A stretch of 64,000 nucleotides of DNA from Thermodesulfovibrionia bacterium (GCA_020057065.1 JAGVGM010000349.1:28647-92646); one strand, 5' to 3'. Positions 59,879-64,000 are shown, numbered from the stretch's first letter. Program-made: numbers and translations. The notes: generated from the sequence alone by a model not told the origin.

Positions 59879-62800
59879 ATGGAAAAATTAATTTCATTTC
59901 AACTCAGTAAAATAAAACTCGTCTGTATTGGTTTTTTTATCAATTGTATTTTCACGATTCTATTCATGCCCATATTATCTTATTCCTATGACAACATTAA
60001 CGTTCATCCCTATATTGCAGAACAAGCATTTCTTGTCTGGCCAAATGATACATCACATGAAATATATCAATATCTTGGTTTTGGATTAAGAGACTCTGAA
60101 TGTGATCCATTTGATGTCCTCTGTCCTGCTATACAGTGTACATATGCCGGAGACGGAACAAAAATTACAGAAGGAGCTAAAGAAGAAGATGACTATGATC
60201 CAGTAAGCCAACAATGCAAAATTTTCTTATATGGTTTATTGCACCATTTTTATGAACCTGATTATCCTGAGCCTAATAATGGACTTTCTTTAAACTCAAG
60301 AGGAGCATTGTCTCAAGTACAAGATTCTGATCTTTATTGGGATACTGCTATAAATACATATCCGGTAAACAAAGGACTTGCCTACTGGTATCTTGGAAGA
60401 ATAGCTCATCTTTTAGCTGATGCATCTGTTCCTGCACATGTTCACAATGATTCACATCTACCTCTTAATGGGGATTCATATGAAAAATATATGAAAGCTG
60501 AAGCTCACTATATTCAATGGGATTATACAAAAGTTTCAGCAATAGAAGCCGAGGACTCGGTTAAAAATTACAATACTATAGATGAACTTTTCTTTAATCT
60601 TGCTCAACGAGCTCAATATTTCCCAAGTGATGAAGTTAATGGGAATACGTCGAATTTAAATATTGACCCGGTTTCGCTAAATTGGCCAATTCCTGATAAC
60701 TCCTGGCGCAAGGTTAAGTTTTTCCTTGAGCCTTATATTGAGGACTCGAATTTAAAAATTATCGGTGATTATCTTATGCCGCGTGCTATACAGTATACAT
60801 CTCAGCTTTACAAAATATTTTGGAATGAAACTCACGGGGCACTCACAGGCATAGTAAAAGACCAGACAACCGGGACTGCTATATCAGGAGCTACCGTTAA
60901 ACTATATGGACCCAACGTCTCAATTCTTGCTGATGAAAAAACAACAGATGCAAACGGCGCTTTTTCTTTTAGCGATTCCGATGTTGGGGATTATTATCTT
61001 GTCATTTCCATAAACAGTTATGAAACCTTAATTACTAATGTTGTTACAGTCATTGCCGGAAAGACGACTGATATGGGAATTATTTCTCTAACTCCTGTTT
61101 CCACAGTTACAGGTACTATCCAGCTTCCAAGCACAGGACAGACGAAGTGCTATCGTGGAGTTAGTCCATATGACGAGATTGCCTGCTCTGGCACGGGGCA
61201 GGACGGGGAGATACGCGCAGGGGTGCTGTGGTCCAGTCAGAGGTTTACGGTTAGTGGTGATTGTGTGACGGACAATCTTACGGGATTAATGTGGCCCAAG
61301 AACGGTAATCTTGCAGGATACAAAAAGCTATGGAATTCAGCCATTGACTATGCCAACAATTTAGCCTTGTGCGGTTATTCAGACTGGCGGCTGCCTAATG
61401 TTAATGAGCTTGAGAGTCTTGTAAATGCAGATGTTTCTAACACAGCCGCATGGCTTAATACTCAGGGATTTATAAATGTGCAGTCGAACTATGCCTACTG
61501 GTCGTCTACTACCTACGCGGGCGGCACGTACTTTGCGTGGGGCGTAGATATGTGGAGTGGTTATGTGAACCGCCCCTATAAGGACTACGGCTACTACTAC
61601 TACGTCTGGCCAGTACGTGCCGAACAAACCAGAACAATTCAACTTCATAAAACAGGGCAGCAAACAAGCTACCGGGCAGGGGATGATGGAGATTTAGAAA
61701 TGGGCGTTGCATGGCCCAATCCGAGGTTTACAGTCGGGACAGGAACTGAGTATAACTGTGTAACTGACAATCTCACAGGTCTTATGTGGCCCAAGAATGG
61801 CAACCTTGCCGGAGGATATATGCTTTGGAATGCGGCTCTTAACTATGCCAACAATTTAACCCTGTGCGGCTACTCAGATTGGCGGCTTCCAAACAGAAAA
61901 GAACTCCGCAGCTTGATTGATTATTCAAACGATAGTCCTGCCTTACCTGACAATCATCCATTCACAAATGTGCAGTCAGCAGGCTATGGCTACTGGTCGT
62001 CTACTACCAGCGCGAGCAATACAAACCGCTCGTGGAACGTCGATATGTGGAGTGGCTACTTAAACGCCAACAGTTTGACCAACTCCAGCTATGTCTGGCC
62101 GGTACGTGCCGGACAAGTGGGTGGGACAGTTGATGATGTGCTTATTAATTCTCTTCCACAATTGTTTAATTATGGAAATGTAAAATCAGGAACTTCTTCA
62201 CAAAAGACCTTTACAATCGTGGTTTCAGGCACAAAGGGTAATCTCACAATCACTAATTTGTCTTTTACCGGCGCCAACTCATCTGAATTCGGTACTCAGA
62301 ATGACACATGTTCTGGCACAACATTGTCGCCTTCGCAAAGCTGCACTGTTGATGTTGTTTTCTCACCTGTTTCAACCGGAGTAAAGAGCGCTGCTTTTAA
62401 CATTATCACCAACAAATCAGGCGTTACCGCAAGTGTATCACTTAGTGGAACAGTGGCGCCTGTTTACACTGACGCCGATGGCGATGGTTACACCTCCGAT
62501 GTTGACTGCGACGACAATGACCCGCTTCAGCACCCGAATCAGATCTGGTATCAAGATGCGGATGGCGATGGATATTCAAATGAAAATATAGTTATACAAT
62601 GCCAAAGGCCAGCTTTTTACAAAGCTGCATCGGAGTTGACAGCTACATCAGGCGACTGCAATGACAACAACCCTGCAATTAAGCCCGGAGCTACAGAAGT
62701 TTGCGATAGCGTAGATAATGACTGTGATGGTCAGACGGATGAAAACCTTACAAAGCAATCTACCTGCGGAGTCGGAGCCTGTGCAAGAACAGGAACCGAG

Positions 62801-64000
62801 ACCTGTGTTGCAGGAGGCTGGATTAATAACACCTGTACTCCCGGCACACCGGAAGGAAGCGATACAACATGTGATGGAATAGATAACAACTGTAACGGAA
62901 CAGTTGATGAGGGATACGTACCGACAGCAACAAATTGTGGAGTCGGAGCATGTGCAAGAACAGGTCAGAATGTATGCCAGAGCGGAACGATAATAAACAC
63001 CTGCACAGACGGAAGCCCAACAGAATCAGATAATAACTGTAACGGCATAGATGAAAACTGTGACGGGACGGCGGATAACAATTACGCTTCGACAGCAACA
63101 AACTGCGGAGTCGGAGCATGTGCAAGAACAGGTCAGAACATCTGCCAGAGCAGAACGATTATTGATACTTGTACGTCAGGTATTCCACAAACAGAGGTTT
63201 GTGATACCGTCGACAACAACTGTAACGGGCAGACAGATGAGGGAGTAAAAAATACTTATTACTATGACAATGATAAAGATAGTTATGGCAATCCTAATAA
63301 TACAACACAGGCATGTACGCAGCCTTCTGATTATGTGTCAAACAATTCTGACTGTGACGACAATAACCCGGCTATTTGGAATTGCAACACGCCGCTAAGT
63401 AACAGTTCTGTAACAAAAACAGATGTAGACGAAACAGTAGCGGTCACTTTCCCCAATATAACCAATGGCGGGGACACAACAATTATTTCACAGCCATGCG
63501 ATTCAAACAAAGTGAAAGGTTTGACGCTTACTGCGCCCGATGCTCAATGCGTGGATATACAAACTACTGCAACGTGGAACGGACAGGCAGAGGTATGTAT
63601 TCCTTATGGACAGGGTTCGCTTACATTGGAAGATGAGAACAATCTGAACATGATCAGTTGTGACGAAAATATACCGCCAACATGCGACGTTCTCTCATTA
63701 TCTTCACGTATTCCTAATCCTGATACCGTGAATAATGTACTTTGCGTTCTGACAGATCATTTCTCCTATTTCGCAGTTGGAGAACTTACAGATATGGATA
63801 ACGATGGTGCGCCCGATTTGCTTGACAACTGTCTATTAATAGCCAACTCCGATCAGTCTGATGCAGATGCTGAAGGAACAGGCGATGCGTGTGACAACTG
63901 TCAAACTGTTGCTAATCCCGATCAGGCAGATACGGATAATGACGGAGCAGGCGATGTATGTGATTCATATGAATGCATACTTACAGGATTGTCTGATAAC
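59879..64000 (+). CDS. Large modular secreted protein, 3'-partial, missing from ORF track: Zn-phospholipase C/S1-P1-like domain, carboxypeptidase-regulatory-like domain, 2x Lcl/DUF1566, Ig-like domain, MopE-like and TSP3 repeats
   Basis: ATG after GGAGG; reads in the same frame at every segment checked up to the window end; VHPYIAEQA...HHFY...LGRIAHLLADASVPAHVHND..YEKY; two YWSST...VWPVR Lcl domains; 3x CGVGACARTG. Confidence 0.85.
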   Translation, partial: MEKLISFQLSKIKLVCIGFFINCIFTILFMPILSYSYDNINVHPYIAEQAFLVWPNDTSHEIYQYLGFGLRDSECDPFDVLCPAIQCTYAGDGTKITEGAKEEDDYDPVSQQCKIFLYGLLHHFYEPDYPEPNNGLSLNSRGALSQVQDSDLYWDTAINTYPVNKGLAYWYLGRIAHLLADASVPAHVHNDSHLPLNGDSYEKYMKAEAHYIQWDYTKVSAIEAEDSVKNYNTIDELFFNLAQRAQYFPSDEVNGNTSNLNIDPVSLNWPIPDNSWRKVKFFLEPYIEDSNLKIIGDYLMPRAIQYTSQLYKIFWNETHGALTGIVKDQTTGTAISGATVKLYGPNVSILADEKTTDANGAFSFSDSDVGDYYLVISINSYETLITNVVTVIAGKTTDMGIISLTPVSTVTGTIQLPSTGQTKCYRGVSPYDEIACSGTGQDGEIRAGVLWSSQRFTVSGDCVTDNLTGLMWPKNGNLAGYKKLWNSAIDYANNLALCGYSDWRLPNVNELESLVNADVSNTAAWLNTQGFINVQSNYAYWSSTTYAGGTYFAWGVDMWSGYVNRPYKDYGYYYYVWPVRAEQTRTIQLHKTGQQTSYRAGDDGDLEMGVAWPNPRFTVGTGTEYNCVTDNLTGLMWPKNGNLAGGYMLWNAALNYANNLTLCGYSDWRLPNRKELRSLIDYSNDSPALPDNHPFTNVQSAGYGYWSSTTSASNTNRSWNVDMWSGYLNANSLTNSSYVWPVRAGQVGGTVDDVLINSLPQLFNYGNVKSGTSSQKTFTIVVSGTKGNLTITNLSFTGANSSEFGTQNDTCSGTTLSPSQSCTVDVVFSPVSTGVKSAAFNIITNKSGVTASVSLSGTVAPVYTDADGDGYTSDVDCDDNDPLQHPNQIWYQDADGDGYSNENIVIQCQRPAFYKAASELTATSGDCNDNNPAIKPGATEVCDSVDNDCDGQTDENLTKQSTCGVGACARTGTETCVAGGWINNTCTPGTPEGSDTTCDGIDNNCNGTVDEGYVPTATNCGVGACARTGQNVCQSGTIINTCTDGSPTESDNNCNGIDENCDGTADNNYASTATNCGVGACARTGQNICQSRTIIDTCTSGIPQTEVCDTVDNNCNGQTDEGVKNTYYYDNDKDSYGNPNNTTQACTQPSDYVSNNSDCDDNNPAIWNCNTPLSNSSVTKTDVDETVAVTFPNITNGGDTTIISQPCDSNKVKGLTLTAPDAQCVDIQTTATWNGQAEVCIPYGQGSLTLEDENNLNMISCDENIPPTCDVLSLSSRIPNPDTVNNVLCVLTDHFSYFAVGELTDMDNDGAPDLLDNCLLIANSDQSDADAEGTGDACDNCQTVANPDQADTDNDGAGDVCDSYECILTGLSDN
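61496..61627 (+). repeat. DGR-like variable region VR3
   Basis: Same anchors and NNC codon pattern as VR1/VR2. Confidence 0.7.
61991..62116 (+). repeat. DGR-like variable region VR4
   Basis: Same anchors; retains several AAC/AAT codons. Confidence 0.7.

Follow-up and report, generated by a model that had tools for sequence, protein, structure and literature searches.

The variable proteins written by diversity-generating retroelements (DGRs), in which a reverse transcriptase (RT) copies a template repeat (TR) into a variable region (VR) of a target gene with mutagenesis at adenines, are familiar chiefly as receptor-binders of phages, as surface lipoproteins and as sensors inside the cell. 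One established target class is DUF1566/Lcl_C, a C-type lectin (CLec) fold classified as category 'd' or CLec2, with LdtA of Legionella as its type example (in the cited sections of Wu et al. 2018, PMC5758913). Work of Vallota-Eastman and collaborators, in the parts drawn on here, described dispersed CLec paralogues grafted to enzymes in cyanobacteria, one of them with remnant TR–VR homology and no RT, and placed VRs almost exclusively near the 3' end; the authors proposed that the diversification components are removed after a variant has been selected (2020, PMC7517822). Doré and collaborators reported, in the passages cited, targets with three tandem VR-containing CLec domains, combining domain shuffling with hypermutation (2024, PMC10907252). 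The cyanobacterial and Thiohalocapsa systems are close precedents for the gene considered here, a giant open reading frame (ORF) at positions 59879..64000 (+) of a 64-kb stretch of DNA from a Thermodesulfovibrionia bacterium; this whole stretch of 64,000 nucleotides is called the window. What are two lectin modules of this class doing in the middle of a giant protein, and how did they come by their variable ends? We think it fairly probable that they were made by a DGR, duplicated and embedded mid-protein in exported hydrolases, and that they are now fixed.

A double Lcl_C cassette inside a giant gene

The window corresponds to G000:C150:28647-92646, where G000 is the source assembly, a draft of 377 contigs with 42.3% GC that is 98.67% complete by markers with 6% contamination. 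Within the window the ORF has no stop and encodes 1374 residues. The contig, which contains no N bases, supplies a stop at window-equivalent position 64618, 618 nt past the window end, so the frame that the first-pass annotation had seen only as open is unbroken and the complete protein has 1579 residues. Its middle part holds a double Lcl_C (CLec2-type) cassette at 61118..62118 (+; 49.1% GC). The same annotation had proposed that this cassette is homologous in DNA to a copy about 51 kb away, which is borne out by blastn: when 61000-62250 was compared with 9821-11050, the alignment joined 61118-62118 to 9902-10914 in 1037 columns, 68.7% of them identical (E 2.5e-124), and the 41-mer quoted at the time occurs exactly at two window sites only, 10493 and 61691. 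The paralogous cassette (9902..10914, +) forms the N-terminus of a 1296-residue gene at 9821-13711. In the giant protein the Lcl_C family (PF07603) matches above the Pfam threshold as two domains (192.8 bits, E 2.3e-57), the first at 61262..61618 (+; C150:89908-90264, 101.4 bits) and the second at 61757..62107 (+; C150:90403-90753, 113.9 bits). Two domains are likewise found in gene 9821-13711 (E about 2e-57), and the genome has 13 Lcl_C matches altogether. At the level of sequence profiles the cassette matches the C-terminal domain of Legionella Lcl (8q4e_A) at E 9.3e-4. The same structure is the top fold match of the cassette model (E 1.3e-3, TM-score TMt 0.59; the model is of moderate quality), followed by C-type-lectin-like domains, many at E 0.01-0.5.

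Each Lcl_C domain ends in a DGR-type variable-region module. VR1 (61496..61618, +) runs in frame from a YWSSTT anchor to VWPVR, and VR2 (61991..62107, +) is the second such module. They cover residues ~540-580 and 705-743, so that they end at residues 580 and 743 of 1579 with ~830 residues still to follow.

The cassette is not confined to one partner. In gene 9821-13711 it is combined with MopE and TSP3 repeats and a weak reprolysin-like metalloprotease match, and on contig C336 with Peptidase_M23 and an LCAT-like alpha/beta hydrolase. Other double cassettes have no enzyme and are joined to MopE/CARDB (C156) or MopE/TSP3 (C150, upstream of the window), and single Lcl domains of greater divergence stand next to ankyrin repeats (C343) or by themselves. 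The fusion has no orthologue in the 10 same-genus genomes, whose best cassette matches (65-71% amino acid identity) are no closer than the paralogues within G000. Three Lcl loci deserve a description of their own. The Lcl gene at G000:C336:4490-7027 (L130), truncated where the contig stops, combines Lcl, Peptidase_M23, CarboxypepD_reg and the LCAT-like hydrolase; this contig end may be misassembled, because its final ~100 nt translate to unrelated sequence. At G000:C343:392-2896 (L132) an 834-residue protein has one divergent Lcl_C domain followed by ~11 ankyrin repeats, a pairing unusual for a bacterium. At G000:C170:3353-3754 (L134) a 133-residue ORF corresponds to the first half of an Lcl domain, with a stop mid-domain and 76% DNA identity to the cassette, and is probably a pseudogene fragment of another copy.

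Variable regions and the probable retroelement behind them

What distinguishes the ends of these domains from the rest? In a codon alignment of nine related Lcl domains, with paralogue comparisons over 21 pairs, the stretch running from the YWSSTT anchor to VWPVR, which makes up the final third of each domain, is hypervariable in its amino acids, and the anchors are near-identical even at synonymous sites. The expectation that the VRs diverge more than the remainder of the cassette holds at the protein level: the G5–G2 pairs have an amino acid identity of 0.31-0.59 within the VR core and of 0.56-0.74 within the scaffold, and the median ratio of nonsynonymous to synonymous differences (pN/pS) over the 21 pairs is 0.76 against 0.45, with values of 1.14-2.27 for the VRs of four pairs (G5_d1-G2_d2, G5_d2-G2_d1, G5_d2-G2_d2 and G2_d1-G2_d2). 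The pattern within codons is inverted. Entropy at codon positions 1, 2 and 3 is 1.17, 0.97 and 0.87 in the VR core and runs the other way in the scaffold (0.74, 0.66 and 1.14). In the G5–G2 pairs the VR has third-position identities of 0.71-0.81 and the scaffold of only 0.46-0.59 (p 0.002-0.03), whereas positions 1 and 2 together are less alike in the VR than in the scaffold in five of the six pairs. The third base is C in 53% of VR-core codons against 22% in the scaffold, and C-ending and T-ending codons stand at 23:11 in the VR cores of the giant gene versus 206:331 elsewhere (p=0.001). A template rich in AAC that is copied with mutagenesis at adenines yields just such an inversion, which for this reason is taken as a DGR-type footprint.

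Genuine templates of the same class exist in metagenomes. A narrow motif for the predicted template gave no match in the metagenome scan; a broader one gave 72 TR-like loci, of which 16 are VWPVR-type, or 18 with two AWPVR loci included, representing 12 distinct sequences. A DGR RT follows the template directly at 13 of these 18 loci and is 40-50% identical to the DGR RT of the genus; by tblastn none was detected at the remaining five (L057, L061, L081, L082 and L088); the TRs of L057 and L061 are no more than ~200 nt away from the end of their contigs. L082 and L088 carry a VWPVR-type template, with a cognate VR in L088, and no RT downstream by tblastn despite room on the contig; possibly they are decayed or interrupted DGRs. 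VR–TR pairs are present at six of the 18 loci, and in five of the six nearly every aligned difference involves an adenine of the template; the L100 pair shifts out of register near its 3' end. In the six pairs a stop codon lies within a few codons of VWPVR (VWPVRSGQ-stop), so the VR ends the ORF. In the giant gene VR1 and VR2 have a 3' boundary (VWPVR, then A/S/G-G/E-Q codons) very like the point at which TR–VR homology stops in these genuine DGRs, but it is read through in frame into further protein and the VRs do not stand at the 3' end of the ORF. The hypervariable codons of the giant gene coincide with the adenine-rich Asn codons (AAC/AAT) of the genuine templates. Against its best foreign template VR1 mismatches at 22 of 43 A positions and at 9 of 75 others (p=7e-6), and VR2 against a foreign template at 15 of 42 and 9 of 74. 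Pooled over the 18 foreign templates, mismatch in VR1 is 53% at A and 12-25% at C, G and T, and in VR2 42% and 11-27%. An adenine bias against foreign templates speaks for class membership and origin, not for present activity.

DGRs of this kind are also found close to home. Of 31 genomes, G000 and 30 relatives, 12 have an RVT_1 match, and the same-genus genomes G007 (L031) and G010 (L032) each hold a complete DGR, consisting of a target with VR, a TR, a 538-residue RT and a second target with VR. These elements rewrite Lcl domains: every mismatch displayed within the repeats lies at a TR adenine, the alignments including flanks of 10 and 25 nt to which the non-A mismatches are confined. A short dispersed repeat of ~60-100 nt, 80-95% identical between copies, sits in frame in these sister-genome RT genes (L031:1800-1880 and 2380-2490); G000 has dozens of copies (e.g. 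C48:9526-9585, C105:54016-54121 and C150:71536-71585, which is window 42890-42939), and it looks like an element of the MITE/REP type (miniature inverted-repeat transposable element or repetitive extragenic palindrome).

Would the variability call for a retroelement at all? The C-terminal loops of ordinary Lcl paralogues might have diverged fast under positive selection for new ligands, as binding loops of lectin-like domains commonly do. On this account it is fitting that VR pN/pS is below 1 in 17 of the 21 pairs and that the templates used for comparison come from other organisms. Ordinary divergence would not, however, conserve third codon positions above first and second ones or favour codons ending in C where the gene is AT-rich; nor would the variable codons then coincide so exactly with Asn codons of real templates, between anchors identical even at synonymous sites. 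With working-looking DGRs acting on this very domain type in the genus, an origin by selection with no retroelement ever involved appears very improbable.

Where, then, is the element that would have written these VRs? The DGR of G007 and G010 writes VRs that end in VRCVRGGQ-stop, whereas those of the giant gene end in VWPVR. Because these also differ from that template at positions other than adenine, another template is needed for them. VWPVR-type segments, defined by the anchor pattern, occur in four of 50 family genomes, all of the same genus (seven in G000, two each in G010 and G006, one in G004), and none of these segments in the 50 genomes is an adenine-rich template copy. In G000 itself, blastn with 12 VR segments against the whole assembly matched only other Lcl domains (63-74% identity). 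No DGR RT was found there either: the assembly has only two RVT_1 genes, both CRISPR-linked, and tblastn with the same-genus DGR RT returned no orthologue, only 24-25% matches to these two. The DGR locus of the sister genomes does have an orthologue in G000, on contig C130. Here (G000:C130:1-5164, L043) a frameshift near nt 811 divides the stand-alone Lcl target, and small ORFs unrelated to a DGR occupy the 2-kb slot where the relatives have TR and RT; since the target is frameshifted, the slot replaced and no RT orthologue present in the assembly, this DGR has been lost in G000. By eye the ORFs in the slot resemble a four-helix-bundle (23S rRNA IVP/Avd-like) gene and a toxin–antitoxin pair, a resemblance by eye only, and another four-helix-bundle-like ORF lies upstream on the contig (3-449).

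The two RVT_1 genes belong to RT-associated CRISPR adaptation modules. At G000:C330:4958-8569 (L009) the order is a 310-residue group II intron-like RT, a 23S_rRNA_IVP-family gene, Cas1 and an apparent CRISPR array with repeats of ~36 nt; this RT was considered as a DGR RT and ruled out, as it scores 280.9 bits to a group II intron RT model, adjoins Cas1 and has no TR. At G000:C80:14599-18222 (L010) there is an 883-residue Cas6-RT-Cas1 fusion.

Could the VRs be live nonetheless, rewritten in trans even now by a TR and RT that lie on a mobile element or on DNA missed in assembly or binning? DGRs are known to act on remote targets (in the cited part of PMC5758913), and tandem VR-containing CLec domains in one target are documented (likewise in PMC10907252). 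The 3' boundary of VR1 and VR2, so close to the genuine end of TR–VR homology, agrees with live targets, and VR third positions that are more alike between paralogues than those of the scaffold suggest rewriting after the cassette was duplicated. But indels separate the VRs of the seven copies, which would call for several templates rather than one, and the assembly has yielded neither a TR nor a DGR RT. Nor does any of the four genomes that hold VWPVR-type segments contain an adenine-rich copy, and the sole recognisable DGR locus of the genome is decayed. The downstream flanks of four VRs in the window, VR1 and VR2 included, also showed no GC hairpin (z +1.9, -0.4, -0.6 and +0.5), though this search is uninformative on VR status because only one of three genuine control VRs was positive (L088, z -2.9). 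A live system is thus a possible but doubtful explanation. The first-pass annotation had spoken of a diversified binding cassette combined with different catalytic domains. The combination stands (PLC-like, weakly reprolysin-like and M23/LCAT-like partners), as does the DGR type of the VR tips; diversification in the present tense is not supported, given that no TR or DGR RT is in the assembly and that the VRs differ by indels.

We therefore return to an origin from a DGR followed by fixation. The ancestor would have been a stand-alone DGR target made of a leader, an 'LPxTGQTKCY' motif, an Lcl domain, a VR and a stop. It would have been duplicated in tandem and then captured as a cassette, which may have been grafted into several secreted hydrolases of the genome, in the present case onto a compositionally foreign, phospholipase C (PLC)-like head. 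The VR-writing retroelement would later have gone from the genome, and with it gone each copy would carry a fixed and different binding tip. Several observations weigh against this account. The cassette model has only a moderate pLDDT of 64 and no fold match at E<=0.001. VR pN/pS exceeds 1 in only four of the 21 pairs. The templates behind the adenine bias are foreign, the best of them still mismatching VR1 at 9 of 75 non-A positions, and TR adenines fall at codon positions that selection on a binding loop would also vary. Finally, absence of the TR and RT is not proven, because the assembly is a draft of 377 contigs and a TR–RT cassette could sit on unassembled or unbinned DNA.

A bolder version would see the hydrolase family of the genus as a DGR-driven 'binder-enzyme' repertoire, now or until recently, in which one or a few templates rewrite in trans the mid-gene tandem VRs of at least four large exported enzymes, PLC-like, metalloprotease-like and M23 peptidase/lipase-like. 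The higher third-position identity of the VRs hints that rewriting continued after the cassettes were embedded. We consider this repertoire unlikely. If it were true, mutagenic homing would operate well away from the 3' end of a gene, and secreted catalytic domains would be given new targets instead of sensors or adhesins.

The phospholipase C-like head and the rest of the protein

The catalytic head (residues ~37-320, 59987..60838, +) was assigned by profile, fold and conserved residues to the Zn-dependent PLCs. As the first-pass annotation had noted, it is AT-rich and has His/Asp motifs: its GC content is 34.9%, within the lowest 2.9% of 8086 genome windows of 960 nt and well under the 49.1% of the Lcl cassette. 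An exhaustive HMMER search retrieved 715 relatives (E<=0.001), often as parts of long multidomain proteins, and in an alignment of 25 family members D104, H123, H177, D181, H187, H193 and E202 are invariant and H43 is kept in at least 90%. A family profile run against the Protein Data Bank (PDB) gave six matches at E<=1, all of them phospholipases C (8cqm_A at 4.7e-15, 1ah7_A at 1.3e-10), with no nuclease among them. The AlphaFold (AF2) model of the head (pLDDT 86, pTM 0.85) leads to the same group in Foldseek, where all 15 fold matches at E<=0.001 are Zn-PLCs (1ah7, TMt 0.66), including B. cereus PC-PLC, Listeria PlcB and the N-domains of clostridial alpha-toxins. The proposed PLC/P1-superfamily fold is thus supported by profile and model alike.

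How complete is the metal site? The zinc ligands of PC-PLC are Asp55, His69, His118 and Asp122 (Zn1), His128, His142 and Glu146 (Zn2) and Trp1 (Zn3), according to the section consulted of PMC10420013. In the profile alignment D104, H123, H177, D181, H187 and E202, all six invariant, fall on Asp55, His69, His118, Asp122, His128 and Glu146. Head residue H43 aligns to His14 of PC-PLC, which we take to be a further Zn3 ligand. Some of the evidence fits the PLC assignment less well. The column of His142 is occupied by Gly198, the counterpart of Trp1, which lies outside the alignment, is not placeable, and the Pfam family Zn_dep_PLPC (PF00882, threshold 26.8 bits) is missed both by the whole protein (17.6 bits, residues 163-238) and by the head alone (19.1 bits). 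The invariant H193 near Gly198 could possibly substitute for His142. A search with the single head sequence against the PDB gave nothing meaningful (best E 0.25) and an NCBIfam search of the head returned no family.

Is the head perhaps an S1/P1-type nuclease, or another phosphoesterase of the superfamily? The question touches the substrate and is independent of the DGR. S1/P1-type and SmNuc1 nucleases do appear in the fold search, but below the PLCs (E 0.08-0.4, TMt up to 0.56), and all the matches within the thresholds given above, by profile and by fold, are PLCs. The loss of His142 where H189, D191 and H193 are conserved would suit a nuclease; since that position is unconserved and other His/Asp are kept, the third metal site is probably built differently. 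A head under the Pfam PLC threshold would suit a nuclease too, yet weak Zn_dep_PLPC matches (E<=0.01) occur in 15 of the 25 family members, and nuclease families are absent from these Pfam results. A nuclease or other non-phospholipase activity seems distinctly unlikely. The head is a member of the PLC/P1 superfamily on the PLC side, with part of its metal site probably differently built, and its family of 715 relatives defines a large unannotated branch of the Zn-PLC superfamily under the Pfam threshold.

The head probably has a history separate from that of the cassette. Its closest relative (P0002, 73% identical) has no Lcl domain, another (P0008) carries the same double cassette ~670 residues away from the head, and others have CARDB, PPC, BACON, beta-helix or PKD domains in place of Lcl. 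The nearest named relatives are metagenome-assembled genomes of Nitrospirota/Thermodesulfovibrionales (43-50% identity), and the head was not found in any of the 10 other same-genus genomes.

Around the head and cassette the protein is built of further recognisable parts, all on the plus strand. An N-terminal hydrophobic helix (residues ~2-28, 59879..59986), seen in the AlphaFold model and the sequence, may be a signal peptide or membrane anchor. Between the head and the cassette stands a CarboxypepD_reg/prealbumin-like beta-sandwich (residues 322-399, 60842..61075; PF13620, E 4.4e-11). Downstream of the cassette come an immunoglobulin (Ig)-like domain of the HYDIN/VesB/ASH type (Pfam; residues 756-858, 62144..62452) and a MopE-type Cys-rich 'putative metal-binding' repeat (PF11617, E 9.8e-20; the best of three reported, residues 926-955, 62654..62743), with further MopE-like repeats continuing past 62743. 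A weak thrombospondin type 3 (TSP3, calcium-binding) repeat lies at 63788..63856 (20.5 bits, below the Pfam cut-off of 25), and a CARDB domain (Pfam) occupies residues 1460-1571, beyond the window. Read from N to C, this would be a large exported protein in which a leader and a zinc PLC-like phosphodiesterase head are followed by a prealbumin-like spacer, the two Lcl_C domains and the Ig-like, MopE, TSP3 and CARDB parts. The lectin tips would bind a defined surface ligand, probably a glycan or a protein, and once bound might hold the phosphodiesterase head against a membrane or polymer, as a tethered and aimed enzyme. Predation, competition or scavenging, the roles put forward in the first-pass annotation, would be hypothetical uses of such an enzyme.

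Among the neighbours no recognisable immunity gene was seen, as had been remarked before; the ORFs of 155 residues upstream and 206 residues downstream have no Pfam match, which is weak evidence either way. A 503-residue ORF just downstream of the giant gene (G000:C150:94103-95614, L135:1104-2615) has a weak CsgG (curli secretion channel) match and a TPR match and might be related to export of the giant protein. Further upstream, between two Lcl genes, a 1571-residue ORF (window 48996-53711, +) combines DUF6079 with a weak match to BrxC/BrxD, the BREX ATPase, and is a candidate defence-system ATPase.

Comparison with known systems

How does the giant gene compare with described DGR proteins? 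With the CLec2/DUF1566 proteins it shares PF07603 and anchors that flank Asn-templated hypervariable codons, and about half of the known members have appended surface or adhesion domains (both from the cited sections of PMC5758913). The known members, as described there, have a cognate TR and RT and a VR that ends the ORF, whereas the giant gene has its VRs mid-protein and in tandem, with TR and RT not found in the assembly. As in the cyanobacterial CLec paralogues, a DGR-type module has been duplicated, dispersed within a genome and joined to different enzymatic domains; the cyanobacterial modules are C-terminal, belong to another CLec subclass, are joined to intracellular kinase or orthocaspase partners and reside in genomes that keep DGRs (in the portions cited of PMC7517822), unlike the exported hydrolases, internal tandem Lcl_C domains and DGR-free assembly met here. 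The system of Doré et al. 2024 likewise has several CLec domains per target gene, each with a VR, and some of its DGR parts are degraded. Its proteins serve as sensors of conflict systems (vWA, STAND NTPase), their TR and RT are live and their diversification has been measured, again in the text cited (PMC10907252), whereas the partner here is a PLC-like hydrolase. The head for its part resembles the Zn-PLCs (B. cereus PC-PLC 1ah7, Listeria PlcB 8cqm, the clostridial alpha-toxin N-domain) in its all-alpha fold and its putative His/Asp/Glu metal-site constellation. It matches them by fold at TMt 0.62-0.67 but with 12-16% identity in the fold-search alignments, it opens a 1579-residue multidomain protein where they are a 245-residue enzyme or a PLC+PLAT toxin, and, unlike the compared PLCs, it comes from an environmental, uncultivated Nitrospirota-type lineage.

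Full-text searches linking DGRs with phospholipase C brought up, to judge by titles and the openings of abstracts, only work on insect chemosensory proteins and Acinetobacter biofilms and none on such a fusion, though the target tables of the DGR surveys might list a PLC-type or mid-gene Lcl target. What is new relative to the precedents is the Lcl_C module class, the mid-protein position in very large exported proteins, the hydrolase partners, above all the PLC-like head, and the apparent loss of the retroelement. The giant gene would then show, in nature, how a binding domain made by mutagenesis becomes fixed in different enzymes once diversification is over, an outcome that has been proposed before for cyanobacteria and, as far as the cited parts of that literature go, not for secreted enzymes or internal tandem modules.

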